This document shows, one piece after another, positions 19,021 to 64,000 of a stretch of 64,000 nucleotides of DNA (its first letter is position 1; each line of letters begins with the position of its first letter). Made by a program: the position numbers and the translations under genes. The notes beneath the pieces were generated by a model that worked only from the letters and a program-made list of their open reading frames with translations, made no database searches and was not told the DNA's origin. Origin of the DNA: Somniosus microcephalus (taxonomy: Eukaryota); NCBI GenBank assembly GCA_052327205.1, contig CM126215.1:109120001-109184000 (forward strand), given 5' to 3'.

Positions 19021-19185
19021 AAAATACTGCAGATGCTGGAAATCTGAAATAAAAACAGAAAATGCTGGAGATACTCAGCAGGTCAGGCAGCGTCTGAGGT
19101 CATCTACCTGAAACGTTAACTCTGTTTTTCTCTTCACAGACGCTGCCTGGCCTGCTGAGTATCTCCAGCATTTTCTGTTTTTATT
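19021..19185. repeat. Palindromic element made of two inverted Penelope pseudo-LTR tails
   Basis: 49-bp arms 19048-19096 and 19137-19185 with one mismatch; same sequence as the Penelope tail at 11460-11530. Confidence 0.8.
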
Positions 19186-19960
19186 ACTTGAGTTTTAGTG
19201 TTCTTTTCTCTGCATTTTCTTACGCCATGTTTACACCGATGGTAACCCTGGCTTTGCTGTAACGTAAATGAGGCCGAGTTGCTGCCTCCAGGTGAACCAC
19301 GAAGGAGGTGTTTATCGCTGGTAATTTGGAGATGGTAGTACTCCTATTAGTCAAAATAAACACTGCGGACGGAGATAAGGGTGGCCATCTTTACTGCCCA
19401 CCAACAGGTCATTTCATTCGGCCAGTATGGCTTTTCTGTCGCTGGCCTGTAAGGGTTCTTCATGTCCCTTGTACACCAAGCTGTACACCAAAATTCACCA
19501 TAACGCTGATGCTGCTAACACCTGATACTGACTCACAAGCAGCAAAGCTTGAATGAGAACGCTCAGCTACAAAAGAAGCTGATGACAGTATATGGACTTT
19601 GATAAAACCATGTTTACGGCAGGTGGGAGATGAATAAATACTGTACGTGAATAGTTATGGATTCTCTCATCGCGCAGTGGGTAAAGGAACTGGCTGGAGC
19701 GATGCTGACATACAGAATGGGAGCTGCTGCCACTGGGAAATGCTGGACCAGCAAGTAAGATGAGGTTGAGAATTGTGGAGGTGATTTATAATCCTGCTCT
19801 CCCAGTTGGGATCCGCACTTGCAAGGATCATGGGTCGGAGAACTGGGGCTAGAGTGGGAGCGCGAGATTGTGTAATCACCCCATGTGACTTTAGAACAGC
19901 GTGACTATACAAATGATTGTGTTGTTTTTGAAGCAGTTCTGTGGTATAAATAGGCATCAT

Positions 19961-23935: not shown

Positions 23936-24562
23936 CTTTACATTAGCATCCAGAAAAACTTCAATAATTAAAAGATAACTTGCATAGATATTAAACAAAC
24001 TTTATTTTTCTCCCATCAGAAACAAGCTAATTAGGGCTTGTATGTATAAGTCTACGGCCTAGAAATTCAGTTGGCTGCGCCAGCCGTTAGCGCCTTAGGA
24101 GGAGCAGATCTCGAGCGCTAGGCGCTTAGCGCCCGGGCACAGCGCGATCTGCGCCTCGCCCCAACTTCAGTAGACATTTAGCGCCGACGCAAAGTCTTTG
24201 CGCGCGCTCATCTGCGCGCGCAGATCATGACGTCATTTTGTCGTGCAACGCCCTTTGTGCGCCCGGAACCGGAACTTCACTCGCGCCGCCCCATTGTGCG
24301 CCGGGCGGCCCTAACGACTGTTGAGTGGAACGGTACACAGCCGAGGCGGGCCGCGGGGAGCGCAAATTAAAGGGCACTTACCCTGCACTATAAAGGGCAG
24401 CCATTTTGCAGCATTCACTCTTGTGCAACGGATTTTTGGAGAGAGACCAAGGAAGAGAGCTTACTGCTTTGGCCCAACACTAGGACAGGTATTTTTGGCT
24501 TCAGGCCAGAGCTTTGCAATTATCTTTGCCTTCATTGAGATCTCAGTGTTTGCCAGCATATT

Positions 24563-25702
24563 ATGGGGGCTGCATTGGGTGCCAACGCTGAGTTTCAGCC
24601 TTATGTCGGAAGGGCTTACAGACGCCGTGAGAGAGTGGCAGCCCTGGCTAGACGCAGAGGGGGCAACAGGCGTCGCCAAGTAAGGCCTTACCCACCCAGG
24701 GTATACCGCCAGCAGTTCTCCTATCTCAACATGTCTGCCGCGCAGTGTGTTAGGAGGCTGCGATTCAGAAGGGAGGTGGTTGCAGACATTTGCCAGCTGC
24801 TTCACAGAGATCTGCGTCCACAGCTGATGCGCAGGACGTCTCTGTCGGTGGCAGTGAAGGTGACGGTGGCTCTCAACTTCTATGCCACCGGCTCCTTCCA
24901 ATCCGCTGCTGGGGACATCGCTAACATCTCCCAGTTCGCCGTGCATTGCTGCATCCGCCAGGTGACCAATGCCCTTTTCAGAAGGAGACGTCAATTCATC
25001 TCCTTCCCCATGACCCTGGACAAGCAGCAGCAGCGTGCAGTGGGATTTGCAAGAATAGCGGGCTTCCCCATGGTGCAGGGCGCCATTGACTGCACGCATG
25101 TGGCTTTGCGGGCACCTCTGGAGCATGCCGAGGATTACTGCAACCGGAAGGGCTACCATTCCCTCAACGTACAGCTGGTGTGTGACCACAGGCAGCGCAT
25201 CCTAGCTGTCAATGCCCGCTTTCCAGGCAGCAGCCACGATGCCTTTATCCTGCGACAGACAACTGTGGCTGACATGTTCCAGGCACAGCCTCACCCAAGA
25301 GGATGGCTTATCGGGGACAAAGGCTATCCTTTGTGTACCTGGCTCATGACCCCGCTCCGCGCGCCCACGACCCCTGCTGAAGAGGCATACAACGAGAGCC
25401 ATCAAGCGACCAGGAACCTCATTGAACAAACAATCGGTGTCCTGAAGCAACGGTTCCGCTGTCTGGATCGCTCCGGGGGAGCCCTCCAGTATTCGCAGGA
25501 GCGAGTCTCCCAATTCGTCGTCGTTTGCTGCATGCTGCACAACCTGGCTATCCGCAGGACTCAGGCACTGCCACCTCACGTTGGACCACCACCTCAGGAG
25601 GAGGAGCAGGAGGAGCATGAGGAGGAGGAGGAGTACCAGCCCAGGAGGGAGGCAGAAGGTCCAAGGGCCGCCCGTCGGCAGCTTATTGAACGTCACTTCT
25701 AG
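24563..25702 (+). CDS. Harbinger DDE transposase (HARBI1-like), 379 aa
   Basis: GAIDCTH, NRKGYHSLNVQLVCD, PGSSHDA, GDKGY, IEQTIG and CCMLHN motifs; TATA box CTATAAAG near 24387. Confidence 0.95.
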   Translation: MGAALGANAEFQPYVGRAYRRRERVAALARRRGGNRRRQVRPYPPRVYRQQFSYLNMSAAQCVRRLRFRREVVADICQLLHRDLRPQLMRRTSLSVAVKVTVALNFYATGSFQSAAGDIANISQFAVHCCIRQVTNALFRRRRQFISFPMTLDKQQQRAVGFARIAGFPMVQGAIDCTHVALRAPLEHAEDYCNRKGYHSLNVQLVCDHRQRILAVNARFPGSSHDAFILRQTTVADMFQAQPHPRGWLIGDKGYPLCTWLMTPLRAPTTPAEEAYNESHQATRNLIEQTIGVLKQRFRCLDRSGGALQYSQERVSQFVVVCCMLHNLAIRRTQALPPHVGPPPQEEEQEEHEEEEEYQPRREAEGPRAARRQLIERHF

Positions 25703-26019: not shown

Positions 26020-27942
26020 CTACTTAGTGGCCCGCGAGGGCAATGCCTTCTGCAAACTTTGGCGGACCCTGCACACCCTGCTGCTCCTCCTCAAAGTGAG
26101 GCCAGTGGCTGCTGCAAGGCTGGGGGAAGGCTCCTGAGGGGCACATGTCGTGACGGCAGATGCCCTTGGGGGTCGGCCTAGACGAGGTCTGGCCATCGAG
26201 GGGCCGGCTGGTGAATGCTGCAGCTGTGGCTGGGCAGCATCAGTCACTGCAGCAGCTCGTGGCAGCTCCACTGGGGGAGTGGCAGTGGCGGCTGGAGGAA
26301 TGGGGGCAAGCTGGCGGATGGCAGGTGCTTGCTGGTCGCCTGAGACACTGGCACTCGCCCGGGCCAGCACTGCAGCATGCGCAGCAATCTGCCGAGGGAC
26401 AGACCGCTGTGCTGCTGCAGCGCGCCGGGTGCCCTGGCGATGCCTGGCTGACACAGCGAGTGTGGCAGCAGTGAGTGCCCGTGTTGCCCTGTTCTGTGAC
26501 CGCATCAGAGCAGCCAGTGACTGCACGGCACCACTGATCACCTGGCCAGTCGCTGCCTGAGCTGCCCCGAATTCCGCCAAACTGGTGGCCTGTGAGGCCC
26601 CGAATTCGGTCACACTCCGAGACAGGGACTCGATGGCCTCAGGCATCCATGCCACTACCCCCATGAGCTCCGTGTGCCGGCGCTCCGAGTCCGCGGACAT
26701 GTCCTCGAGGCGGCGCATCTCCTCGGCGTTGACCGTCTCCGGACTGGAGGCCGGACTCTCCCTCTGGGGAGAAGGCCGCCGAGCTGGCCGACCCTTCCTG
26801 CGTTGCTGGACGCCGCTGGGCCCAGCAATTGGACTCCCCTCCGACCCTTCCCCCCTCTGGGGAGAAGGCCACTGAGCTTCCACCCCCCTCCCGCGTTTCT
26901 GCAGGCCGCTGGTCCCAGGAGCTACACTCCCCTCCGACACTTCCCCCAGGCTCCCCTCCAGGGAAGACGTCTCCCCTACATTGGCATGGCTTGCCGCGGC
27001 TGAGGGTTCCCCTGATGGGCCGCCTTCCTCTTGCTCCTCCTCCTTCTCCTCTTCTGAGGGGCTGTCACTGGCAACTTCAGGGACCTCCTCCTCACCATCT
27101 GAAAGCAGGAAGGCACAAGAGTAGCTTTAGAGTGAGGAGAGGGCGTCAGCGAGGGATGCATGAGTGGTGGCATTCAGCGCATTGGTCGGACAGTGGCAAA
27201 GGATGTAGATCTGATGCGCAAGTGGCACGAGAGAGGTCCAAAAGGTGATGCCCTTACCATTGGTGCCCAGAACAGGGTCGGCATCTCCAGATGCAACGGG
27301 GCCAATCACCCGGCCACCCATGATGCGCTCCATGCGCTGTTGCAGCTCGGTGAGCGGCTGGATCTGGGGTCCGCCTCCCCCGGTCTCAGTCCGGCTCATC
27401 TTATTATTGGCCAGCTTGGCCTGCAAGAGAAAGGACGGCCTCTAAGTACAGTGTGTAGCCCTGATCTTCTGTGCACTGCCTCCCATGGTGGAATAGCCTG
27501 GCCAGTGTGTAGCCCTGATCTTGTGTGCACTGCCTCCCATGGTCGAATAGCCTGGCCAGTGTGTTAAGTGCACAATGTGCAATTGATGTTCATGACTGTC
27601 CCATAGCTGCTGCATGAGGGCTGGCCATTTGGGCTTTCAGGTCCCTTTGCCCATAATGTGAGGTGCACATGCAAGGATGAGGAGGATACTGGAAAGGGTA
27701 CTCACCCTGACAATCCTGGCGAGGTCATTTAGCTTTTTGCGGCATTGTACAGTGCTCCTGGGGACCTCACTGTTGGATGTCACCCTGGTGGCGACATGCC
27801 TCCAGGCTTTCCGGTAGAGGCGGGCCGCCGGCTTCTTCCCATTGTTCGGAAACAAAATATGGCGTCTCTTCTCCACAGCGCCAACCAGCACCCTCAGATC
27901 ATGCTCTGAGAAGCGCTGCGCTCGTTCACGGGCCTTCTCCAT
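26020..27942 (-). CDS. Harbinger Myb/SANT-like (trihelix) DNA-binding protein, 3 exons, about 492 aa
   Basis: Exons 27942-27706, 27420-27258 and 27098-26020 with GT..AG introns in phases 0 and 1 give one open frame; RFSEHDL...AWRHVA...RSTVQCRKKLNDL...TGGG motif. Confidence 0.85.
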
Positions 27943-33278: not shown

Positions 33279-33459
33279 TGTTGTGTATGTACCTTTAAGG
33301 GAATAACTGGTCTCAGACTGCAGTACCGGCAGTGACCACCCCTGTATAAAAGGCACTAACAGCCTTCTGTAGTTTCAGTTTCCCGTTTGTCTCCATTCAG
33401 TAAAGACTTGTTATGATCAACTCCTGCTGTCCGTGTCTCAATTATACACGGACATAATA
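33279..33459 (+). repeat. Gypsy 5' LTR
   Basis: Direct repeat of 38176-38356; TATAAAA box; AGTAAA signal; U5 hairpin 33428-33454. Confidence 0.95.
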
Positions 33460-33460
33460 T

Positions 33461-33470
33461 TGGCGATGAG
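33461..33470 (+). promoter_or_regulatory. Primer binding site (tRNA-Ser-like)
   Basis: TGGCGATGAG is one change from TGGCGACGAG, complementary to the tRNA-Ser(GCU) 3' end. Confidence 0.6.
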
Positions 33471-33988
33471 CAAATACGAACTTACCTACAGTCTGCACCA
33501 CCTCCTGGGATCCATTCCTGAAGCGAAGTGAGCAGAGGTCGAGGTCAGAAGGAGGAAAGAAGCAGTAGAAACGGGCGTCGACCGTGGGCATCCACCCCTG
33601 AGTCAGCGGAGTTGAAGATTGCAGGAGAGGCTGTCGAGAGCGGGGCTTGGTTCCTGTCGACGGTGCTTCAGCTAATCGGGCTGGTGGCAGGTAGTACACT
33701 GATCCTTCCTGGGCTGCGGCGGTTTAGAACTCGAGCGGGTGGCTTGCAATGGGGCCGAGCAGCGTTGTCGGGAAGAGGAGAGAGAGAGAGGGTGGAGCAC
33801 ACAGGGCGCGGCCGGTGCTATGAAGCCGGGCAGCGTACAGACCCGAGAAGAGGGAGGCAAGAGTCCCACAGGGTTGTTCCACGACGGGAAAATAATAAAA
33901 TAACAAAAAAATATATATTAAATGCGCAGAAAGCCGCGAGGAGCTGCAGGTTGCAACGGAAACTGCGGAAAGCAGCGCTAGCAACAGC

Positions 33989-34103
33989 GGGGAAGAAGGC
34001 AAAGCGCGGGAGGCGCCATCGTAATCCAGTGGGGAAGAAGGCAAAGCGCGGGAGGCGCCATTTTGTTAAATCGGGGAAGAAGGCAAAGCGCGGGAGGCGC
34101 CAT
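33989..34103 (+). repeat. Three copies of a 31-bp motif in the Gypsy 5' UTR
   Basis: GGGGAAGAAGGCAAAGCGCGGGAGGCGCCAT x3 with short spacers. Confidence 0.9.
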
Positions 34104-34117
34104 TTTAGATTTCCAAG

Positions 34118-34858
34118 ATGCCGAAGACTGGCTGTATCACTGCCTTTGATAATGCAATAGAGGACTGGACCACGTATGTGGAAAGAGTCGAGGTATATTG
34201 CGAGGCAAACGAAATAGCCGATGAGAAAAAGGCATCGGTACTGCTAAACTTAATGGGCGCAAGAACGTACGGCCTATTGCGGGACCTGATTGCTCCAGCC
34301 AAACTGAAGGCGAAGAGTTTTAACGAAATTGTTGCTATCCTACAGGAACACCTAAACCCTGCACCGCTGCTGATAGCAGAAAGATTTAAATTCCACAGGA
34401 GAACTCAGCATAAAGATGAGAGCAATGCTGAGTACCTTACGGAATTACGCAAGCTATCAAAGCACTGCCAGTTCGGAGCAGGACTGGCAGATACCCTACG
34501 GGACAAATTTGTCTGTGGACTCCTGAGTGAAGGAACCCAGAAGAGGTTACTCTCAGAGAAAGAGCTGACGCTAGATAAGGCTTTCAGTGTGGCAGTATCG
34601 TACGAAGCAGCAGCCAGGGGAGCTGCGGAAATACAACAAAAGCCACAGGAATACGGCACTCACGAAATGACACAGGGATTTGCAAAATGTTATCGCTGCG
34701 GCAGAACTAACCATGACCAGAAGGACTGCTGGTCCAAGGACAAAATATGCAGGCAATGCGGAAAGGTGGGACACATTGCACGAGGTTGCAGGTCTGGGAA
34801 GAAGACCAACAACAACAAAAAGGCTACTAAGGAACCGTACAGAAAGTACAAAAGATGA
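34118..34858 (+). CDS. gag: Gypsy Gag
   Basis: WTTYVER, ERFKFHRRTQ, LRDKFVCG; two CCHC zinc knuckles. Confidence 0.9.
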   Translation: MPKTGCITAFDNAIEDWTTYVERVEVYCEANEIADEKKASVLLNLMGARTYGLLRDLIAPAKLKAKSFNEIVAILQEHLNPAPLLIAERFKFHRRTQHKDESNAEYLTELRKLSKHCQFGAGLADTLRDKFVCGLLSEGTQKRLLSEKELTLDKAFSVAVSYEAAARGAAEIQQKPQEYGTHEMTQGFAKCYRCGRTNHDQKDCWSKDKICRQCGKVGHIARGCRSGKKTNNNKKATKEPYRKYKR

Positions 34859-37800
34859 CGGACAGTAGTTCCGAAGACCAGATGAGCGATAGTGAATCCG
34901 GGAACAAGAGACTAAGCTGTCTCAAACTTCACAACGTAATCGCAAAAGAGGATCACCGAACCATTTGGGTCACCCTCACGATAGCAGGGTCCCAAGTCAA
35001 AATGGAATTGGATACAGGATCAGCTCTAACCGTCATGAATCGACGCGACTATGAGCGGCTATTCTCACACATACCCTTGAGAGAGACATCCATTGTCTTG
35101 AGGATATATACGGGGCAAAAAGTATACCCCAGAGGAAAAATAAGGGTGCCTGTCGAATACAACGGCAAGAAAATACGGAAATTGTATCTCTACATTCTGC
35201 AAGATGGTGGACCACCGTTATTGGGACGTGAATGGATCAGAAAGATAAGTTTAGACTGGCACTCCATTCAGGCACTGACGGTGGCGGATAAAAAAGATGA
35301 CGACGTCACTCCTGGACGATTGTCAACAATCTTAGCTGACGCCAAAGAGGTATTTCAACAAGAACTGGGCACTCTTAAAGGCGTAACCGCCTCGATAAAA
35401 ATAGAGGAGAATGCAATTCCCAAGTTTTTCAAAGCAAGACCGGTACCATATGCAATTCGCCCAGCCGTCGAGGCAGAGCTGGAGAATCTGGAGCATGCAG
35501 GCGTGTTATCTAAGGTAGACTGGAGCGAGTGGGCGACACCCATCGTTCCTGTCATGAAGAAAACGTTAAGCAATAAGTCTGAGGAGCCAAGGAAGGTTCG
35601 CATCTGTGGGGACCTCAAGGTGACGGTGAACCCAGTCCTTCACACAGTACAATATCCTCTTCCAAAGATAGAAGATATCTTCGCCTCACTATCTGGAGGG
35701 AAGCGTTTTACAAAAATTGACCTAGCACAAGCATATTTGCAGATGGAGGTTGAAGAATCCTCTAGGAAATATCTCACGATAAACACTCACAAAGGTCTTT
35801 ACCAGTATAATCGACTGGTATTCGGAGTAGCATCAGCGCCGGCGATCTGGCAAAGAGCGATGGAACAAGTCCTGCAAGGGATTCCGGGGACTCAGTGTTA
35901 CTTGGACGACATCCTAGTGACAGGTGAAGATGACAGTGAACACCTTGCCAACCTAGAGCAGGTGCTCACTAGACTACGTGAACATGGGCTGCGAGCCAAT
36001 CGCCCCAAGTGTGAGTTTTTTAAGAAACAGATATCGTATTGTGGCCACGTGATTGATGAAGAGGGGTTGCATAAGTCCCCTGACAAAATTGAAGCGGTAG
36101 TTATGGCTCCGGTGCCTGAAAATGTGTCACAACTGAGGTCATTCCTCGGATTGGTGAATTACTACCATAAGTTTTTGCCGAATTTGTCCACAATTCTGAA
36201 TCCACTGAACACCCTACTACGAACGGGAGTAGCATGGAAATGGAGCGATGAATGTAAGCGGGCCTTTCAGGAGAGTAAGGACCTAATCACTTCAAGAAAA
36301 GTATTGGCTCACTACAACCCATCACTACCGATAAGGCTGGCGTGTGATGCGTCTCCCTACGGCATTGGGGCGGTACTGTCACATAAATTCCTTGATGGTT
36401 CAGAGAGGCCGATAGCTTTTGCGTCACGCTCGTTAACTTCAGCCGAGCGTAACTACGCTCAGATTGACAGAGAGGCCCTCAGCCTGGTGTGGGGGGTGAA
36501 GAAGTTCAATCACTACCTGCACGGTCAGAAATTTACTCTACTAACGGATCATCAACCTCTCGTCTCCATTTTCAACCCTCAGAAGGGCGTACCGATAATG
36601 ACGGCACAACGGCTGCAGAGGTGGTCCCTTTTCCTAGGGGCACACCACTATGACATCGAGTACAAGGGAACTAAACAGCATGGGAATGCTGATGGATTGT
36701 CGCGCCTACCGTTACCGATGGTGGAAGAAGAACTGGCGGTGGATCCAGTGGAGTTATTCCACTCGACTATAGTCGAATATCTCCCTGTGACGAATGCAAA
36801 CATAGAAAAGGAAACATGAAATGACCCGACACTCTCCAGGGTCTATGATTTAACGGTGAAGGGATGGCCAGCACATGGCCAACCACTGCTGCCAGCATTC
36901 TCGCCGAGAAGAGAACAGCTGTCAGTGTGCAGGGGGACCTTGATGTGTGGATCCAGAGTAGTAATTCCACCTAAATTGACGGATAGAGTGCTCAATGAGC
37001 TTCATGAGGGTCATCTGGGTGGGGTAAAAATGAAGAACTTAGCCAGAGCGTTTGTGTGGTGGCCGGGAATCGATAGAGAAATCGAAGAGATGACCAAGAG
37101 CTGTACAGGATGCCAGAAGGTCCAAAACGCCCCACCATAAGCTCCTCTACATCCATGGGAGTGGCCCTCATCTCCATGGCAAAGGGTGCACATTGATTTT
37201 GCTGGTCCCTTTATGGACTCGATGTTTTTAATTGCAGTGGATGCACATTCAAAGTGGCCAGAGGTAATAAAAATGTCCTCAACCACCACAGAAAAAACCA
37301 TCACAGTCTTACGAACCATATTCGCCAGAAATGGGCTGCCTGAACAGATTTGCTCTGACAATGGACCACAGTTTGTGCCTGAAGAGTTCCGGAGGTTCTT
37401 AAAGAACAATGGTGTTAAGCATTACACATCCGCCCCATATCATCCAGCCACTAATGGATTGGCCGAGAGGTTTGTTCAAACATTCAAGAAGGCTATCAAG
37501 GCAATGTGTAATGAAGATATACCCCTACAACACAAGGTGGATAACTTCTTGTTTGCCTACCAGAATGCGACACATGCGGTTACCAACCAAACTCCAGCCA
37601 TGATGTTCTTCAATCGAAGACTACGATGCCGCTTGGATTTGGTTAAGCCAAACGTCCGAAGAGATGTGGAGAACAGGCAGTTTCAGAATATGAATGAAAG
37701 GCCGACCAGGAGTTTTAAGATAGGCCAACCAGTTTTGGCCCGGGACTACCGCACAGAGAAATGGCAGCCAGGAACGATCTGCACACGGCAAGGACCTCTA

Positions 37801-38073
37801 ATGTATACCGTGGACGTTGGAGAGAGTATTGTAAGACGCCATGCTGACCAGATTCTAGAGTCACTGGAAAACATCAACTCCACACCACGATCTGATACAC
37901 CTGGCGATGAAACCGAAGTACCAATTGCATCTACCGCAGAATCGGTGATATTGGAAGCAGATGAACCAAACAACGACATTGATCCCGATTCAACCTCACC
38001 AGAAGAACCTAATACCCCAAAGAGGCGTTATCCAGACAGAATCAGGAAGCCTCCTCAAAGACTGAACTTATAA
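34855..38073 (+). pseudogene. pol: Gypsy Pol (PR-RT-RNaseH-IN) with two in-frame stops
   Basis: LDTGS, YLDD, CDASPYG, HEGH..CTGC, HIDFAG, SDNGPQF, NGLAERF; stops at 36817 and 37138. Confidence 0.9.
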
Positions 38074-38175
38074 TTGCTTAACCTCAACCAATGTATCTAG
38101 CAACCGTAATTGTAGTTAGTTATTATTTAGTTGTTAAATGAATGTTATGTACTGTTTAGCTAAAAGGGGAGGAAT

Positions 38176-38356
38176 TGTTGTGTATGTACCTTTAAGGGAA
38201 TAACTGGTCTCAGACTGCAGTACCGGCAGTGACCACCCCTGTATAAAAGGCACTAACAGCCTTCTGTAGTTTCAGTTTCCCGTTTGTCTCCATTCAGTAA
38301 AGACTTGTTATGATCAACTCCTGCTGTCCGTGTCTCAATTATACACGGACATAATA
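38176..38356 (+). repeat. Gypsy 3' LTR
   Basis: Identical to 33279-33459, preceded by the PPT. Confidence 0.95.
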
Positions 38357-40816
38357 GGCACAATCTCTCCTCATACATCATTCCTGCCATCCCAGGTATC
38401 AGCCTGATGAATCTTCGCTGCACTCCCTCCATGGTAAGAACGTCCTTCCTCATGTAAGGTGACCAAAACTGCACACAATACTCAAGGTGCGGTGTCACCA
38501 AGGCCCTGTACAACTGTAGCAAGACATCCTTGTTCCTGTACTCGAATCCTCTTGCTACGAAGGCCAACATACCATTTGCCTTCTTAACCGCCTGCTGCAC
38601 CTGCATGCTTACCTTCAGCGACTGGTGCACAATAGCACCCAGGTCTCTTTGCACTTTCCCTTCTCTCAATCTATTGCCATTCAGATAATAATCTGCCTTC
38701 CTGTTTTTGCCACCAAAGTGGATAACCTCACATTTATCCACATTATAGTGCATTTGCCATGTTTCTGCCCAATCACCCAACCTGTCCAAATCGTACTGGA
38801 GTTTCACGACATCCTCCTCACAGCTTACCCTCCCACCCAGCTTTGTGTCGTCTGCAAATTTGGAGATATTACATCCAATTCCCTCGTCCAGATCATTAAT
38901 ATATATTGTGAACAGCTGGGGTCCTAGGACCGATCCTTGCGGTACCCCACTAGTCACTGCCTGCCACTCGGAAAATGACCCGTTTATTCCAACTCTTTGC
39001 TTTCTGTCCGCCAACCAGTTCTCTATCCAAGTCAATACCTTGCCCCCAATCCCATGTGCCTTAATTTTGCACGCTAATCTCTTATGTGGGACCTTATCGA
39101 AAGCCTTCTGAAAGTCCAAATACACCACATCCACTGGTTCTCCCTTATCTATTTTACCAGTTACATCTTAAAAAAATTCCAGTAGATTAGTCCAGCATGA
39201 TTTACCTTTTGTAAATCCATGTTGACTTTGTCCGATCTTGTCACTGCTTTCCAAGTGCTCTGCTATTACATCTTTTATGATAGACTCTAGCATTTTCCCC
39301 ACTACTGATGTCAGGCTTACTGGTCGATAATTCCCTGCATTTTCTCTACCACCTTTTTTGAATAGTGGGGTAACATTAGCTACCCTCCAATCCATGGGCA
39401 CCGTTCCAGAGTCTATCGAGTTCTGGAAGATGACCAGCAATGCATCTACTATCTCTAGGGCCACTTCCTTAAGTACCCTGGGATGTAGGCCATCAGGCCC
39501 TGGGGATTTATCGGCCTTCAGTCCCATCAATTTTCCTAACACCATTTCCCTACAAATACTGATTTCTTTCAGTTCCTCCCTTTCATCAGACCCTATGTTC
39601 CCCAGCATCTCTGGGAGGTTATTTGTGTCCTCCTTTGTGAAGACAGAACCAAAGTATGTATTTAGTTGGTCTGCCATTTCCTTGTTTCCCATTATAAATT
39701 CCCCTGATTCTGACTGTAAGGGACCTATGCTTGACTTCACCAATCTTTTTCTCTTCACATATCTATAAAAGCTTTTACAGTCAGTTTTTATGTTCCATGC
39801 TAGCTTACTCTCATATTCTATTTTCCCTTTCTTAATTAATCCCTTTGTCCTCCTTTGTTGAATCCTAAACTGCTCCCAATCCTCAGGATTATTGCTTTTT
39901 CTAGCCAATTTATATGTCCTCTCCTTGGATCTTATGCTGTCCCTAATTTCCCTTGTTAGCCACGGTTGAGTCACCTTTTTTGTTTTATTTTTATGCCAAA
40001 CTGGGATGAACAAATTCTGTAGCTCATCCATTTGGTCTTTGAATGTTTGCCATTGCCTATCCACCGTCAACCCTTTGAGTGCCATTCCCCAATCAATCCT
40101 ACCCAACTCGCTCCTCAGACCATCGTAGTTTCCTTTATTTAAATTGAGGACCCTTGTCTCTGAGTCAACTACTTCATTCTCCATCTTAATGAAGAATTCG
40201 ATCATATTATGATCGCTCCGACCCAAGGGGCCTCGTACAACAAGATTGCTAATTAATCCTTTCTTGTTACATAATACCCAGTCTAAGATGGCCTGATCTC
40301 TGGTTGGTTCCTCGACATATTGGTCCAGGAAACCATCCCATAAACACTCCAGGAATTCCTCCTCCACAGTATTGTTACTAATTTGGTTGGCCCAATCTAT
40401 ATGTAGATTAAAGTCACCCATGATGACTGCTGTGCCCTTATTGCACGCTTCTTTAATTTCCCTTTTAATGCCATCCCCAACCTCCGCCTTACTGTTTGGA
40501 GATCTATATACCACTCCCACTAATGTTTTTTTCCCCTTAGTATTTCTCAATTCTACCCATACAGATTCCACATCATCAGAGCTAATATCCTTCATTACAA
40601 TTGTATTAATCCCTTCTTTAACCAGTAATGCTACCCCACCTCCCTTTCCTTTTTGCCTATCTTTCCTGAATATCGAATACCCCTGGATGTTGAGTTCCCA
40701 GTCTTGGCCATCCTTGAGCCACGTTTCCGTAATCCCAACCAAATCATATTAGTTTACCTCTATTTGCGCAGCCAATTCATCCACCTTATTACAAATGCTT
40801 CTCGCATTAAGACACA
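38357..40816 (-). mobile_element. CR1 LINE ORF2 (APE endonuclease plus RT)
   Basis: GITETW, GDFN, SDHN endonuclease motifs; PGPDG, NYRPVSLTS, PQGSVLGP, FADD. Confidence 0.95.
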
Positions 40817-40859: not shown

Positions 40860-42950
40860 GGCCTAGAAATTGGCCCACTTACCGCCACGAGTCACTGCCG
40901 CGATCAGATCTAAAAATGGCGGCTGCCACTCTAGTGCCATTCTGTGTTGTGGGACTTGGCGGCCGCCATTTTGCTGAGGGCCTTAGCACTTATCGGCACC
41001 GTTGGCCCTGGAAATGTAAATTAAGAGAGGGTGCAGGCCAACTCAATGTCACCTCAGTGAACTTGGACCTTAGCGCTGAGTTCAGCGCTGGCTCCTAAGC
41101 TTGCCATGAAGACCCAGTGTTCAGCAGACTGAGGGACACACACATCTTTCAAGTAAGTTTGCATTTAAGCTTTTGGACTGGATTTTTTTTATTGCAGTAG
41201 TGGCTTGGTGCAATACATGTTAAAAGCAGGGAGTGCTGCTGGATGCTTGCAAGGTCTCAGATGGCAAAGGAAGGCCTCTGAAAAGACAGAAAATGCTGGA
41301 AATGCTCAGCAGGTCAGGCAGCATCCATGGGGAGAGAAACATAGTTGACGTCTCAGGTTGAGATGCTGCCTGACCTGCTGAGTATTTCTAGCATTTTATG
41401 CTTTTATTTCAGATTTACAGCATCTGCTCGCAGATGGAAAAGGACGACGCAGAAAAGGAGGAAACAGCAGAAGGATGCAACCCAGACAGCCCCTTTCAGG
41501 CTGGGATATCCGGGATGGAATCATCCACCACTGGTACCAGTGACCACAACCCCAATTCCCCTTTCAACATTTGTCCCATACCTTACTTTCCCTCTGTTAC
41601 TGACCATCACAGTGTCCTCTTGGCCATGATGCTGAAATAAAAGCCACCACAAAGCAAACTTTTCAATTCAACTTTATACACCTATCCATCCAATATGACA
41701 TCAATAAATCAACTCTTCGCCCTTATGCATTTCCTTGGTGACTGTCTTGTGTGTGCCTTTGCCTACCGTACTGATGTCACGCTGTGTTACCCCAGTGGCT
41801 GCAGCATGGCTGGTAGAAGGCTGCTGACTTTCAGTGGGGGACATTGCAAATGGCCTTGCTGGTCAACTTTGAGGAGCTAGAAGCTGGGAATGTCAAATCG
41901 AGTGATGGTGTTTCGTCTTCTTCTTCACTCTCCTCTCCCTCTTCTTGGTCAACCACTGGCTGGGCAGGCTGCATTTCTTGGGTGTGTGAAATGAGGAAGA
42001 CATAAGGGTGGAGTTGTGGTGAGGGGAGGGCGGGAAAGCGAAAGGTGCATGCAAGAATGAGGATAATGTATGAGGATACCAGGATCTTGTAGCCTTTCAG
42101 CCCTTCTTCTAGCCAAGGGTACAACCATGCCCCTGCCAAGAATGGCCTGCAGCGTCTCCTCCAAGGGGGTGAGGTTAAGCTAAGAGTGGAAGGTGTGCTT
42201 CTTATTAGTAGGTAAGTGAGTGGGGGAGGTGGGTGGTCGTGTATTGAGCAGTGTGTGAGGCTAGTGGTGCAGTTGGTAGCAGACGGCTCTTGAAGATGCA
42301 TTCACTGACCTTGACCACTGGTCTGTGGTCATGAAGCTTCTTTGGCCACTGGAGCCAGGTGGTGGGGACAACACTGTTGGTTGGCAGTGAGGGCCTTGGT
42401 GATCTGGTTCCACATCGTTCTTTCTTGAGGGCTTCCTGGCTCCTGTGGGTAGAGGAGCTTTCTTGCAGTGTTGACCCCCTGTACAAAGTTGGACTGCACG
42501 TCTGAGATCCTGGGTGCCCCTTTCCTGGCTTGCTGAGCCACTTTTCCCATTTTTTTTAGGTGCGGAAGGCAATTCAGCTTTAAGAGCTGAAGACTCCCAT
42601 TTGGGAATTCTTTTTAATGTTAATTTTTTTCCAGAAGGCAGTTGAGCTGTAAGAGCTGAACACTACATATTTTTACATCATTTTTATTTTAACATTTCAG
42701 AAGGCATTGCCCTTTTAAGATCCCATAATGCTTTGCGAAATCACAGCCTACTTTTCAGAGGCTGTTGAAGTTGCAACGCCGCTTGGGCACACCACATTGG
42801 GGCCTGATACCAGGACCAACGCCACCAGGAGGGCGTTAGTGAATTTAGCACTGGGCTAATAACCATTAGTCCCCAGTGCCAATTTTTCAGTCCTGCTAGC
42901 GCCACCATTTTTGGCGGCTGCTAACCCCCGGCTGCGGTGGCACCGGCAGC
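40860..42950. mobile_element. Decayed internally deleted Harbinger element
   Basis: Left end GGCCTAGAAATT; minus-strand Myb-like remnant ARKGAPRISD...TMWNQITKALT (42329-42550) and an acidic exon remnant; right boundary uncertain. Confidence 0.55.
41283..41427. repeat. Palindromic Penelope-tail element
   Basis: AAAATGCTGGAAATGCTCAGCAGGTCAGGCAGCATC ... GATGCTGCCTGACCTGCTGAGTATTTCTAGCATTTT. Confidence 0.75.
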
Positions 42951-48217: not shown

Positions 48218-48562
48218 AATATTTGATACCAAGTATAGCATGCCAAATGCATAGATTATAATATAAATGTGGATAGAATCCTGACTGGTCATAGGGGTCT
48301 ATGTTACAATGGGGAACAGGAAGCTTATTAAAGCAAGTAATCAGTGGACCGTTGGGTCCTGATCCCTTTAAGGACATGCGTGACACAATTTTTAAAAATT
48401 GGCGGCACTCAACTTGTTTGCCACAGGCTCCATCCAGGCAACAAATCACAATGAAGCACGTTAGAGAGGCAGGAACATCAATCAGACAGTTAGCGTGCTT
48501 TATACACAGCAAGTACTGTATACATCGATTTCGTACCGCTAATTTGATCAAGTACCAACATC

Positions 48563-51500
48563 ATGCCTGAAGACGGAAGTAGTCGTCGATGTCAGAAACA
48601 CGGGTCTTTTTCAAGACCGGCATTGACTGTTATATCTGCTAATGTTGAAGGGTTCTCTATAGCTAAACAAAACATCCTCGCTACATTATGCAATGAGTTG
48701 GAGTGTGATGTCCTCTGCCTGCAGGAGACACATAGAGGAAGTGAGAACAACCGCCCAAAAATACCAGGAATGGTCCTGGCTATTGAAAGACCTCATCGAC
48801 AATATGGCAGTGCTGTATTTGTTAGAGCTGGTTCAGTTGTAGAAGCCACTTCTAAAACAGAGGAGGACAACATCGAAATTCTAACCGTAGAGCTGAGCAA
48901 AGTAGTAGTGACCTCAGTGTACAAGCCACCTGGCACAGATTTCAGCTTCTCTAACCCTGTACCCAACCTGCACAATAAACCACAGATCATCATTGGAGAC
49001 TTTAATAGCCACAGTACCCAATGGGGGTACAAGGAGACTAACAACGATGGAGAAGCAGTCGAAGAATGGATGGACGCTAACCAGCTTAGTCTCATCCACG
49101 ATCCTAAATTGCCAGCCTCCTTCCACAGTGCCCACTGGAAGTGTAGATATAATCCAGATCTTGCCATTGCCAGCAACGACATCGCTGGCCTCTGCAAGAA
49201 GCTTGTCACAGACCCAATACCACAGACACAACACCGTCCTATTGGTATCCAGGTAAATGCAGCAGTGTTACCAACCGTCATACCATTCAAAAGGCGCTTC
49301 AACTTCAAGAAGGCCAATTGGAACGGTTTCACACGAGCACTTAACCGCAAGGTTAAATGCATTAAACCACTACCTGAGCACTACAACCTCTTTGCAAAAG
49401 CTGTCCAAAAAACAGCTAGAAGGAAGATCCCCGAGGTTGCAGAGTACACTACATCCCTGGTCTCACCAAGGAGAATGCTGAACTCTACTGGGAGTATGTC
49501 TCAATGTTTGAATCTGACCCCTTCTCAGAGGAAACAATATCTACTGGTGAGAGGGTGATGTTAAGTATTTCTCAAGAACGTCAAAACACCTGGAACACCT
49601 TGATAGAGACAACAGATCTTACAAAAAACAGCAAGAAGGCATGGTCTCTCATACGCAAACTTGGAGGTGATCCCAAGAAAGCTGCCCAACATCCAAATGT
49701 GTCTGCTAACCAAGTTGCACACCAGTTGCTCCTAAATGGAAAAATCAACAAGAAACAACCAAGAGCACAACTAGATAGGAAGAAGTACAGCGATGATCCT
49801 GGCTTCACTAGACCATTCACCATGGAAGAGCTGGAAACTGGTACATCTAATCTAAAACACGGGAAAGCAATTGGTCTTGACAACATAGCAACGGAGCAGA
49901 TAAAGCATTTTGGACAGCAAGCAAAGAAGTGGCTCCTACAATTGTTCAACCACTGTCTGGCAACACACAAGCCACCTAATATCTGGCAGAAGGCACATGT
50001 AATAGCACTATTAAAGCCTGGAAAAGATCCCTCAGACCCTAAGAGTTTTCGGCCAATTTCACTGCTTTGCCACACCTATAAGCTGTTTGAACGCCTGATA
50101 CTCAATAGGATAGCACCAACTGTAGATGAGAAGATCATTCCAGAGCAAGCAGGTTTCCGCCCCGGCAAATCAACAACAAGCCAACTGCTCAACCTCACAC
50201 AACACATCGAAGATGGTTTTGAACAATGGATGGTAACTGGTGCTGTTTTTGTAGACCTGTCAGCAGCATACGATACAGTGAACCATAGACGTCTCCTATG
50301 CAAGATTCTAGAGATGACAAAAGAGATTCACTTAACAGAGCTGTTAGAAAGCATGCTTCAGAATCGCCGGTTCTATGTTGAACTAGGTGGGAAGCGCAGC
50401 AGGTGGCGTATTCAGAAGAATGGTCTTCCTCAGGGAAGTGTGCTTGCACCGCTGCTGTACAACATCTACACGAATGACCAACCTATAGACGGTGTCACAC
50501 GCCGTTTTATATATGCTGATGACTTATGTGTCACTGCCCAAAGCACTGATTTTAACACCGTGGGTGTTAAGTCCGTGAATGATTGAGACACGGACTAGCA
50601 GGAGAGAAAACAAACAGATCTTTACTGGTGGAAGTCCATAACGAAACTAAACAACAGAGGCTCTCTAGCGCCTTTTATACAGGGGTGGTCACTGCCGGTA
50701 CTGCAGTCTGAGACCAGTTATTCTCTTAAAGGTACATACAAAACAGTGGAGAAAACGCTTTCTGAGGCCTTGGAGGGACTAAAATCCTACTATGAAGAAA
50801 ACCACCTTCGCGCAATCCCATCAAAGACGCAAGTTTGTGCATTCCACCTCAGAAACCGTGAAGCCAAACGCCAGTTGAAAGTAACCTGGTGTGGAGCAAC
50901 ACTGACGCATTGCGAGCACCCTATCTACTTAGGAGTCACCCTTGACCGATGCCTCACCTTCAAGAACCACATCGAGAAGACAAAGGCAAAAGCGAGCGCA
51001 CGAAACAACATCCTGAATAAGCTCACTAACACAAGATGGGGAGCAAGCCCGAAAACATTGCAAACCAGTGCACTTGCTCTTTGCTATTCCACTGCCGAAT
51101 ACGCCTGCCCTGCATGGGAAAGGTCTACTCATGCCAAGAAGATGGATGCCGTTCTGAATGTAAGCTGCCGATTTATCACAGGTTGCTTAAAACCAACAAA
51201 CACCAACAGCCTGTATATCCTGGCGGGTATCGCTCCCCCTGATATAAGAAGAACAGTAGCCAGCAAGAAAGAGCGACTCCGTCAAACATCAGATGAGAGG
51301 CACCCTCTGCATTGTCATACACCTACACCCAGCCACCTAAAGTCAAGGAAGAGCTTCATGAACAGTGTTGTTCCATTACAATCAACCTCATCTGAAGCCC
51401 GCATCGCCTTGTGGAAAGACCGGCTCGCCAGTCTTGAACAACCCCCAGCGATGGAAATTTTACCTGATGAAAGCCTTCCCCCAGGAGCTAATTGCAACTG

Positions 51501-51735
51501 GGCAATCTGGAAGTGCCTTAACAGACTTAGGACCGGTGTAGGTTGCTCAAAGGTGTCACTAAGCAAATGGGGATATTCAACCAGCCCGACAACTTGTGAA
51601 TGTGGAACTGAGGCACAGACTATGCAACATCTCCTGCAATGCCCATCATTAGAGGAACCCTGAACTGTTGCAGATCTTGCCGAATCCAACAACAAGGCGC
51701 AAAAATGTGTCCAGTTCTGGCTGGGCTATGTATAG
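48563..51735 (+). pseudogene. LINE ORF: APE endonuclease, RT and C-terminal zinc knuckle
   Basis: LQETH, GDFNSH, FRPISLL, QAGFRPG, DLSAAYD, PQGSVLAP, YADD, LNRLRTG, CECG..QTMQHLLQCP; frameshift near 49430, solo LTR insertion, TGA at 51661. Confidence 0.9.
50565..50745 (-). repeat. Solo LTR related to the 33279 Gypsy
   Basis: 181 bp, TG...CA ends, TSD GTGGG/GTGGA; removing it restores the LINE frame (FNTVEKTL). Confidence 0.9.
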
Positions 51736-53772: not shown

Positions 53773-54654
53773 GGGGCAAAAATTCAGTTGCTTTGCGCCT
53801 CCCGTCAGCGTCCTAAGAGGGCGCTAATGGGGCGCAAAGCAACTAGCGCCTGGGCGCGGCGATGTTTGCGCCGCTTGCGAAATTGACCAGACATTTTGTG
53901 GCGGTGCTAAACACTACCGCCACGATCTCCTGTGCCGGCAGATCGTGACGTTAGTCGAGTGTGCAATGCCCCGGTAGCGCCCCAGACCGGATATTGAGTG
54001 GCGCCCCCTGCCTTACCGCCTGCTGCTAGCAACAACAGGTTGAGGGGAGCGTTTTGCATTTGGGAAGGGATTGGGGGAGCACTATTTAAAGGCGACCGCT
54101 TCCTGCCTTTTTTTGTTGCCGACATTTTTGCACCACGCATTCTGAGTGAGAGAGAGAGACTTCTGGAGATATTCAACGCTGTGTTGAGGAGTTTTGGGTA
54201 CTGAGCAGCACTTGGCAGGTTCATTTTGATTTGATCTTCCTTGCATCGATTTAGAAGAGAATATGGGGGCTGCACTCTGAGCTCTTTCCCTGGGCCTCTC
54301 CATTGTTCTTTCCAGCAGATTTGATGTACAGGCCGAGATTCAAGGCTGCAATGAGCAGGGTGTGGATGGAGAGCAAGATCGACCCTCCCCTTTAAGAACT
54401 GGCCAGCACCAGTGTGTCTGTGTTCCATTGCTGACTGACATCATCTGAGCTTCGCCAGTGCTCTGAGGTAGTGCCTCGCTCCTCGGCGTTAGTGCCTTAA
54501 GAGAGGTGTGTAGCACCTGATTTAGTGCTCCAATCACCTCCAGGGGTGATAGAAGCCAAGTTTGCAGTCGGAGGCGATAATTAGCGCCAGGCGCTAAACT
54601 TTGGGCCCAGCCGATAATTGCCCCCCAAACAGGGCGATACCGAATTTCTCCCCC
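53773..54654. mobile_element. Non-autonomous Harbinger element (MITE), copy 2
   Basis: TIR GGGGCAAAAATTC / GAATTTCTCCCCC; TSD AAA; colinear with 7766-8652. Confidence 0.85.
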
Positions 54655-61560: not shown

Positions 61561-61795
61561 TGTGGTAAACCACTGTTATACCTGTCTGTATGTGTATGTG
61601 TATTCCACTAGGTACAGGTCTGGACATGCCTCGGCTGACTCCTCCCACTATTCCAGGTATATAAGTGACTACCTCCCAGTCCCTTAGTATTCTGGATGGG
61701 TCGACCACTCGAGACTAGACCTTCATTCTTTAGTTAATAAAAGCCTGGTTGTTACTCGCTTAACCTCAGTCTTTTGAGTAATTGATGGCGCATCA
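61561..61795 (+). repeat. Putative 5' LTR of the second Gypsy
   Basis: TATATAAG 61658-61665; AATAAA 61736-61741; ends GCATCA; left boundary inferred because the 3' LTR is outside the window. Confidence 0.6.
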
Positions 61796-61819
61796 ATTTT
61801 ATTAACTAAATTTTTTATA

Positions 61820-62842
61820 ATGGAGAAGATCCTCACACCAGCATGCCTGGACCTGGACAGTCGGGAAGCGGACGCTTCCACCAAGTTTGCTCACTGGCTC
61901 ATGTGCTTCGAGGCATTCCTGACTGCCTCCACTGCGGTCGTAACGGATGCGAACAAACTGTCTGTCCTGATCTCCAAGGTGAACCACCGAGTGTACTCAA
62001 TCATCCGGGACGCGACCTCGTACACAGCCGCCCTCCAGCTCCTCAAGACCCAGTACACGCGCCCTGTGAACGAAGTATACGCCAGGCACCTCCTGGGGAG
62101 TTGCAAGCAACAACCTGGGGAATCGACTGAGGAATACCTCCAAGCACTGTCCGTGCTTGGCCGGGCCTGTGGGTGTAAGGCGGTAACGCCCACTAAGTAC
62201 ACGGAGGAACTGATCCGGGATGCCTTCGTAGCGGGCCACAGGTCCAACTACACCCGACAACGACTGCTGGAGCAGAGTGACCTCACCCTCGGCAAAGCCT
62301 CCGAAATCGCACTAACGCTGGATGCAGCCTACCGGGGCATGGATGCCTACTCCTCTGCACCGTGGACGCCGCGGGGAACGACAACCTGGGACACGGTAGG
62401 ACAGCCCCATAGCACCGTGCCACCCCAGCCACAGCCCAACAATGGCCCAACCACCGCAGCAGTGTCCCAAAGCCAGACAGCAGTATCCCAAGGCCAGAAA
62501 TGCTACTTCTGTGGCCAGGCCAAACACCCCAGAGCGCGCTGCCCGGCGAAGAATGCGACCTGCTCGGGCTGTGGGAAAAAGGGACACTACGCTAGCGTCT
62601 GCAAGGCCAAAGCCACCCCGAATGCCAGCAGCACCGCGTGTGGGCCGTGCGAGCCGCCATCTTGGGCCCCCAACAGCGCCGCGTGTGGGCCGTGCGGGCC
62701 GCCATCTTGGGCCTCCCCAGCCATGTGCGAACCACCGCAGCAGCAGCCATCTTGGACGACTCCAGCCACATGGGAATCATGGACGCCGCCATCTTGGACG
62801 CCAGCCGGGACGCAGCAGGTCGCCAACCCCCCCCCCATCTGA
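61820..62842 (+). CDS. gag: Gypsy Gag
   Basis: YARHLL..KQQPGES, IRDAFVAG, CYFCGQAKHPRARCP, CSGCGKKGHYASVC; tandem ACGPCxPPSW repeats. Confidence 0.85.
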   Translation: MEKILTPACLDLDSREADASTKFAHWLMCFEAFLTASTAVVTDANKLSVLISKVNHRVYSIIRDATSYTAALQLLKTQYTRPVNEVYARHLLGSCKQQPGESTEEYLQALSVLGRACGCKAVTPTKYTEELIRDAFVAGHRSNYTRQRLLEQSDLTLGKASEIALTLDAAYRGMDAYSSAPWTPRGTTTWDTVGQPHSTVPPQPQPNNGPTTAAVSQSQTAVSQGQKCYFCGQAKHPRARCPAKNATCSGCGKKGHYASVCKAKATPNASSTACGPCEPPSWAPNSAACGPCGPPSWASPAMCEPPQQQPSWTTPATWESWTPPSWTPAGTQQVANPPPI

Positions 62843-64000
62843 TACCCGCAGCGACACACCGACCCCTACGCTGGCCTCTGTTACGCTGGACCAAACGAGA
62901 CCGCACCAACTAGCTCGGTCCAAAATGGATGTTAAGGTAAACGGCCATGCAATAAACTGCCTTTTTGACTCCGGGAGCACAGAGAGCTTCATCCACCCCG
63001 ACACGGTGCGGCGTTGCTCTCTCCCAGTCCTGCCTGCGCACCAGCGGATTTCTATGGCCGCCGAGTCCCAGTCAGCGGACATTGGCGGCTACTGCGTGGT
63101 GACACTAGTAGTAGACGGGACTGTGTTCAATAATTTTAAACTCCTGGTCCTGCCCCAACTTTGCGCTGCCGTTCTACTGGGGTTGGATTTCCAGTGCCAC
63201 CTCAAAAGCGTTACGATGGCGTACGGTGGCCCCCTCCCCCCACTCACAGTCCGCAGCCAGCAGCCTCCAAATTGCCCGCCGCGCACCAGATGCAACCTCT
63301 CCACACTCAGAGTCCCACCCCCCCCCACTGTTTGCTAACCTCACCCCCGACTGTAAGCCCATCGCCACAAAGAGCAGGCGATACAGTGCTGGGGACAGGG
63401 TTTTCATCAAAACCGAAGTGGAGCGGCTCCTGAAGGAGGGGATTATTGAGGGCAGCTCCAGCCCCTGGCGAGCCCAGGTTGTGGTCGTTAAGACCGGCGA
63501 GAAACAACGCCTGGTCATCGACTACAGCCAAACAATAAACCGCTACACCCTGCTGGACGCCTACCCACTCCCCCGCATAGCTGAAATGGTCAACCAGACC
63601 GCGCAGTACCGCGTCTTTTCGACCATTGACCTGAAATCAGCGTACCACCAGCTCCCTATCCGCCCCGAAGACCGCCAGTATACTGCTTTTGAGGCAAACG
63701 GCCGCCTCTATCATTTCCTTAGGGTTCCCTTTGGCGTTACCAACGGGGTCTCCGTCTTCCAAAGGGAGATGGACCGGATGGTCGATCAAAACGCGCTGCA
63801 GGCCACTTTCCCTTACCTAGACAATGTGACCATCTGCGGCCATGACTTGCAGGACCATGACGCAAACCTCGAGAAATTCCTCCGCACCGCCCAACTCCTG
63901 AACCTGACATATAACAAGGAGAAGTGAATATTCCGCACAGACTGCCTCACCATCCTTGGCTGTGTTGTGGAACACGGGGTCATCGGTCCCGACCCGGACC
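62843..64000 (+). pseudogene. pol: Gypsy protease plus RT, frameshifted at poly-C runs, stop at 63925
   Basis: CLFDSGSTES, LLGLDF, SPWRAQVVVV, DAYPLP, IDLKSAYHQ, VPFGVTNG, YLDN. Confidence 0.85.

Follow-up and report, generated by a model that had tools for sequence, protein, structure and literature searches.

Introduction

The closest described parallels to the element reported here are retrotransposons that prime reverse transcription with a piece of their own RNA. In the available text on Tf1, the primer site is paired with bases 1-11, and RNase H cleaves the RNA between bases 11 and 12 (PMC7175516); the primer site takes part in a three-duplex structure (available text of bioRxiv 10.1101/2022.12.06.519325). 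In the accessible parts of the literature, self-priming has so far been described in Tf1/sushi chromoviruses and predicted in two plant lineages, the criterion in plants being at least 10 bp of LTR complementarity starting 0-5 bp past the 5' LTR (available text of PMC6317226).

Here we analyse a Gypsy element in a 64,000-nucleotide stretch of Somniosus microcephalus DNA (the whole stretch is hereafter called the window). A preliminary description had noted that a site complementary to the element's own LTR lies where a tRNA primer site would be expected, and had read it as self-priming, as a switch that masks the poly(A) signal in the 5' LTR only, or as both.

Results

A site complementary to the LTR lies at the primer-binding position

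The complementarity is exactly as described: TTTAGTTAATAAAA (61729-61742) is the perfect reverse complement of TTTTATTAACTAAA (61797-61810), forming 14 bp around a 54-nt loop, with an AATAAA inside the LTR arm, and the run cannot be extended on either side. For a 235-nt LTR of the same composition, 1.7e-6 exact complements are expected by chance, or 1e-5 over six start offsets. Perfect inverted repeats of at least 14 nt with a short loop occur at four places in the 64 kb, the arm/primer-site pair included; the other three lie at 19048-19186, 41305-41382 and 53786-53844, the first two within a dispersed repeat family.

Both LTR ends were located with reads of an RNA run from a related organism (X19): 145 reads have mixed loose ends behind 61795 and 159 before 61561 (agreement 0.46 in each case), and the loose ends before 61561 show a purine run, as expected of a 3' copy. 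With the LTR thus fixed at 61561-61795, the primer site falls outside it, at the primer-binding position. In relatives, the LTR ends are fixed by the 3' LTR as well, and both the reads and the relatives with two LTRs place the partner strand behind the 5' LTR only, in agreement with the preliminary description. Its two further observations, that no tRNA-type TGG follows the LTR end of the window copy and that the gag ATG (at 61820) stands 24 nt past the LTR, hold as well.

Table 1. Features of the self-complementary element in the window.
Feature	Position	Strand	Support or remark
5' LTR, 235 bp, TG...CA	61561-61795	+	mixed loose read ends on both sides; sequence
TATA-like box TATATAAG	61658-61665	+	sequence; suggested RNA start near 61686-61689
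LTR arm, complement of the primer site; 3' part of the predicted self-primer	61729-61742	+	
AATAAA hexamer within the arm	61736-61741	+	sequence
GCCT directly after the arm	61743-61746	+	cut predicted at 61742/61743
Inner stems TTACTC/GAGTAA and ATTGATG/CATCAAT	61752-61797	+	not conserved
Primer-binding position, self-complementary site without TGG	61797-61810	+	1 nt beyond the LTR end
gag, 340 aa, two CCHC-type knuckles	61820-62842	+	stop-terminated
Aspartic protease region	62844-63338	+	out of frame with gag; Pfam PF13975, E 3.9e-13
Reverse transcriptase	63334-64000	+	third frame; element leaves the window; Pfam RVT_1, E 1.2e-19

The two inner stems of the loop fared less well. They are present as sequence, but the loop folds no better than its shuffles (z -0.95 in the window copy; mean z -0.51 over 25 families). 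The two stems share bases, A61781 belonging to both, and T61797 belongs to the hairpin and to the primer site; G61787, in the innermost pair of the ATTGATG/CATCAAT stem, is A in most related reads. Folding of the whole 61686-61830 RNA gave z -1.73, and no Rfam family was found in the window.

The element belongs to a compact Ty3/gypsy clade

The gag ORF of the window copy halts at a stop, whereas intact relatives continue into pol, and the RT carries an in-frame stop at 63925-63927; with these frameshifts and this stop the window copy is defective. There were 74 gag matches; among the closest listed, the named ones are sharks and rays (39-50%), and further relatives come from a crab, a coral, a whipworm, a crinoid and Hydra. 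The RT shares 80% identity with a Narcine protein, and its best match among solved structures is the RT of Ty3. The RT catalytic motif reads YLDN/YMDN, not YxDD, in the window copy (63334-63924) and in the intact relatives L018, L030, L034 and L078.

A conserved gag motif pattern retrieved at least 120 metagenome loci, 80 of them with full flanks, and 8 loci in prokaryote assemblies; viral contigs searched for relatives yielded nothing. Three clade elements (L122, L124 and L126) are on contigs filed under bacterial metagenome-assembled genomes, likely as eukaryotic contamination. The comparisons below draw on 76 loci, the window included, in which gag was confirmed and 600 nt upstream were available. 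Complete relatives are 3975-4533 bp long (7 measured), with a 5-bp target duplication in 5 of 7, LTRs of about 160-310 bp and one ORF of 1187-1238 aa. All four intact relatives have the pol order PR-RT-RH-IN (the window copy is cut by the window end), and this order, TG...CA LTRs, a polypurine tract, a target-site duplication and an RT closest to Ty3 are features of Ty3/gypsy elements. A search of the four full polyproteins at E 0.1 found no chromodomain, and none is among the precomputed domains of the 120 homologues listed out of 1510. Where relatives have both LTRs, a T-rich site again follows directly after the LTR end. In a tree of RTs, built without named references or a chromovirus row and with mostly open inner forks, a 100/98 split separates two unrelated Gypsy RTs from the window copy together with the pairing loci.

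The site covaries with the LTR across families

We aligned the loci on an anchor, CA-[AT]-TT, which was chosen without regard to pairing and is present in 55 of the 76 loci and absent from 21. Clustering at 80% identity gave 35 families, each represented by its first copy. Among the anchored loci, 36 of 55 pair with their own LTR at 11 of 11 positions and 42 at 10 or more. By family, pairing at 11/11 was found in 23/35, as against 8 of 1190 cross-family tests, and pairing at 10/11 or better in 27/35, as against 68 of 1190. A TGG occurs within 7 nt of the anchor at a single locus in 55, the anchor itself requiring TT.

The preliminary description had proposed looking for covariation between the post-LTR motif and the AATAAA region, and it is plainly there. 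Among 25 families selected because they pair at 11/11, both sides have changed in 14 of 16 pairs, with 82 double-change cells and 3 one-sided, a result reached by 0 of 500 shuffles; the families are related, so that these cells are not independent events, and the choice by pairing makes positions 1-11 a biased test and leaves 12-16 an unbiased one. At positions 12-16, 93 of 125 cells pair (51 +/- 4.6 when permuted), whereas positions 17-22 stay at the background level (38/150, against 40.6). The inner edge is sharp, with pairing at position 0 in 1/25 and at position -1 in 0/25 families, and in slid registers pairing drops to 31-50%. The duplex is 11-18 bp long and stops abruptly at ...AAA|RCC. 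Composition at positions 12-16 is 165 Watson-Crick pairs, 8 G-U and 52 mismatches.

Covariation is also seen at finer scale. In four of four runs, 61732 A>T is matched by 61807 T>A, which turns an A-T into a T-A pair: 61732 is T in 64/87, 96/135, 282/401 and 119/207 reads and 61807 is A in 16/30, 43/57, 110/185 and 72/164, the reads being from related copies and the two sites unphased. Both variants occur in contig sets. Compensatory changes within a family were found between L034 and L069 at position 7 and between L041 and L050 at position 14.

These observations bear on whether a host tRNA fragment or other small RNA could prime, the LTR match being incidental. Half-tRNA priming does exist in copia lineages, according to the available text of PMC6317226, but a shared host RNA sits badly with 25 distinct 11-mers in 28 families, each following its own LTR, and with the compensatory changes within single families; we regard this explanation as barely credible. 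No tRNA genes were found in the window.

Pairing is not universal. Seven of the 35 families fail, and a perfect inverted repeat of at least 10 nt is missing from the scanned range in 30 of 76 loci. Among the 34 loci that are unanchored or pair below 10/11, six reach 14/16 in a lenient test in which controls reach 10-14. We take the non-pairing loci to be decayed or truncated copies. On this comparative evidence, the self-complementary site is real, clade-wide and strongly covarying.

The register of the duplex is fixed relative to the LTR end

A duplex so close to the start of gag might instead be a packaging, dimerisation or translation-control structure, apart from priming. The primer site indeed lies close to gag, its first base being 15-51 nt ahead of the ATG in 20 families and the site extending as far as the ATG in some; the distance that is held constant, however, is that to the LTR end and not that to the ATG, G-U pairs are scarce, and such a structure would leave the element with no alternative primer site beside the LTR. 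We consider this function highly improbable.

The arm itself consists of a T-rich run followed by A/T-G-T-T, with the G present in 26 of 28 families, and ends in three nearly invariant A's; the A/T-G-T-T resembles an initiator element. After the AAA come G (21 of 28 families), C (26), C (20) and T (22). Across families, a second short stem tends to open directly behind the arm, where its score is 274, against 202 +/- 12 and a maximum of 247 in 1000 shuffles and against 191-211 at offsets 2-9. Its self score is modestly above the cross-family score (9.8 vs 8.3), and in the window copy it is weak (3 bp, p 0.47). We found no counterpart of the Tf1 "pretzel" duplex downstream of this site (mean z +0.39; below -1.65 in 1 of 25). 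At L001:532-648 (-), the arm ends in GAGAAAA, without a poly(A) hexamer, and is followed by a TCTA/TAGA stem, the duplex of 11-12 bp being kept.

Does the duplex chiefly hide the poly(A) signal of the 5' LTR, with some other primer in use? A canonical hexamer (AATAAA or ATTAAA) lies in the arm of 18 of 28 families, the terminal A's are nearly invariant, and behind the 5' LTR alone is there a partner strand, all of which such a switch would explain. It does not explain the 10 of 28 pairing families whose arm has no canonical hexamer, nor the 5 of 28 in which a hexamer is left unpaired in the loop; it has no need of a register held at 1 nt from the LTR end, and it would leave the element primerless; and an RNA-only helix would tolerate G-U pairs, which are rare against Watson-Crick pairs at positions 12-16 (8 vs 165). 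The switch proposed in the preliminary description is therefore a side effect at most: the pairing may occlude the poly(A) signal as a by-product, which cannot be its general purpose, and as the main function it seems to us very unlikely.

Where the RNA begins

Two features point to different start sites. The TATA-like box at 61658 suggests an RNA start about 40 nt upstream of the arm in the window's family, and the loose end at 61648 marks related copies that carry a TATA-like variant at the same place as this box; across the clade, a TATA-like box within 150 nt upstream is present in 3 of 28 families, at differing distances. The fixed outer limit of pairing at 16 bp, on the other hand, suggests a start at the edge of the arm. 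Read starts do not pile up in the LTR at any of the listed places (4 of 6). From about 61697, ahead of the arm, sense depth increases (123, 177, 224 in X19; 91, 118, 142 in X18), an increase that we set aside because diverged subfamilies enter and leave the mapping there. Over 61561-61800, run X19 has far more reads in one orientation (about 500-700) than in the other (about 110-170), and the more abundant orientation would be antisense RNA if the library is of the usual stranded type.

Two narrower models of the primer were considered and rejected. An 11-nt primer beginning at the A of a conserved AGT fails as a general rule, since covariation reaches position 16 and this A is T in 5/28 families. 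A splice acceptor (...TTTAG|) that would build the primer fails because pairing spans the AG and the A is T in those 5/28 families and in most related reads; no LTR joint was seen.

A tRNA-primed Gypsy element and other repeats of the window

The window contains a second, unrelated Gypsy element at 33279-38356 (+), which serves as a control. Its LTRs are identical over 181 bp, indicating a young copy, and end in TA rather than CA; its motifs suggest that it is of Mag type. Like the element described above, it has the Gypsy domain order, short LTRs and a CCHC-knuckle ORF upstream of pol. Unlike that element, it is TGG-primed, its RT-RNase H is only 29% identical, and it falls outside the clade in the RT tree. 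Its TGG-type primer site is at 33461, its 5-bp target duplication is near-perfect, and after its LTR there is no self-complement (longest 3 nt).

Other repeats include an ORF with a DDE_Tnp_4 (Harbinger-type) transposase domain at 24539-25702 (+; E 2e-38) in a GC-rich stretch, an ORF on the opposite strand at 26020-27126 without a Pfam match, LINE remnants with endonuclease and RT domains at 38253-40748 (-) and 48548-51663 (+), and many dispersed SINE/LINE-like repeats across the window.

Discussion

A site that occupies the primer-binding position and is complementary to the element's own LTR makes it likely that the element primes with a piece of its own RNA. Of the readings offered in the preliminary description, tRNA-independent self-priming is thus the one that comparative evidence (covariation, LTR boundary, pairing families) strongly supports. 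Judged by sequence comparison, Tf1-like self-priming is probable in a Gypsy clade of aquatic animals whose members are compact (4.0-4.5 kb), have a single ORF and lack a chromodomain.

The self-priming we propose would proceed as follows. The leader would fold and bring the arm into a duplex with the primer site; RNase H, presumably that of the element, would then cleave the RNA at ...AAA|RCC, the point where the second short stem begins; and the freed 3' end would be extended through U5/R. Plus-strand synthesis would copy the primer, so that the primer site is rewritten from the LTR. tRNA primer sites are likewise rewritten each cycle through primer copying, and rewriting of this kind would account for a nearly pure Watson-Crick match with few G-U pairs.

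Given self-priming, the chances are about even that the RNA starts at the outer edge of the arm, yielding a primer of 13-16 nt. A start further upstream, with a fragment of about 55 nt in the window's family, is possible, though it would not be our first choice, and use of the 3'-LTR copy of the arm appears improbable. We advance a broader proposal as a speculation that may well not hold: self-priming in this animal Gypsy clade would be independent of Tf1/sushi, with a primer cut from inside the RNA (as a capped fragment of about 55 nt, or as a genome-circularising 3'-LTR copy), the A-rich hexamer acting as both poly(A) signal and primer terminus and the duplex both priming and silencing the 5' poly(A) signal.

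If the clade does prime itself, this large chromodomain-less group, whose gag or RT relatives occur in cnidarians, nematodes, crustaceans, echinoderms and cartilaginous fishes, would represent a further, probably independent, origin of self-priming. The case is relevant to which of the two modes, tRNA priming or self-priming, is the older and to how often elements switch, questions raised in the available text of PMC3601003. Such elements would be independent of host tRNA and would offer no tRNA-complementary target for silencing by tRNA fragments, and annotation tools that require a tRNA primer site would overlook or mis-call them.

Among named groups, the intact relatives resemble Cigr-1 in size and layout: Cigr-1 is about 4.2 kb long, its LTRs measure 245 bp, and it has a single ORF of about 1200 codons. 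The Cigr-1 clade is present in Ciona intestinalis and has also been reported in molluscs and annelids. The window clade may be the Cigr-1 clade, and it could also be one of the MolGy/PolGy groups. The name of the Cigr-1 clade appears in PMC6238403 and PMC8556966, whose available text makes no mention of a PBS or of self-priming, and no match to the motif turned up in the readable supplements to PMC6238403. A term search of the accessible text of PMC2774666 gave no relevant match. We found no report of self-priming in such a clade in sources available in part, which describe it for Tf1/sushi, Tcn1, Tj1 and plant TAR copia elements (PMC6317226, PMC4600332, PMC5341516, PMC7175516, PMC7472051, PMC3601003); most of the subscription literature lay outside this search, and Repbase or GyDB may already note the pairing.

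By the LTR-complementarity rule under which Tcn1 (gypsy) and TAR (copia) were classed as predicted plant self-primers, as given in the available text, the window element is a predicted self-primer too. Tcn1 and TAR belong to other lineages and hosts, Tcn1 grouping with Tf1/sushi and TAR being a copia element. The closest likeness is to Tf1/Tf2 of Schizosaccharomyces pombe, to Tj1 and to Tf1/sushi elements at large, which share with the window element a primer site after the 5' LTR that matches their own LTR, a short duplex and the Ty3/gypsy order. In Tf1 the arm is the 5' end of the transcript, and in the window clade it may lie there or further inside the RNA. This clade further differs from Tf1/sushi in the absence of a chromodomain and of the downstream "pretzel" duplex, in place of which it has another short stem after the arm; in a duplex of 11-18 bp, with covariation to position 16 and an arm that mostly ends in a poly(A) hexamer; and in a two-knuckle gag and aquatic animal hosts from several phyla.
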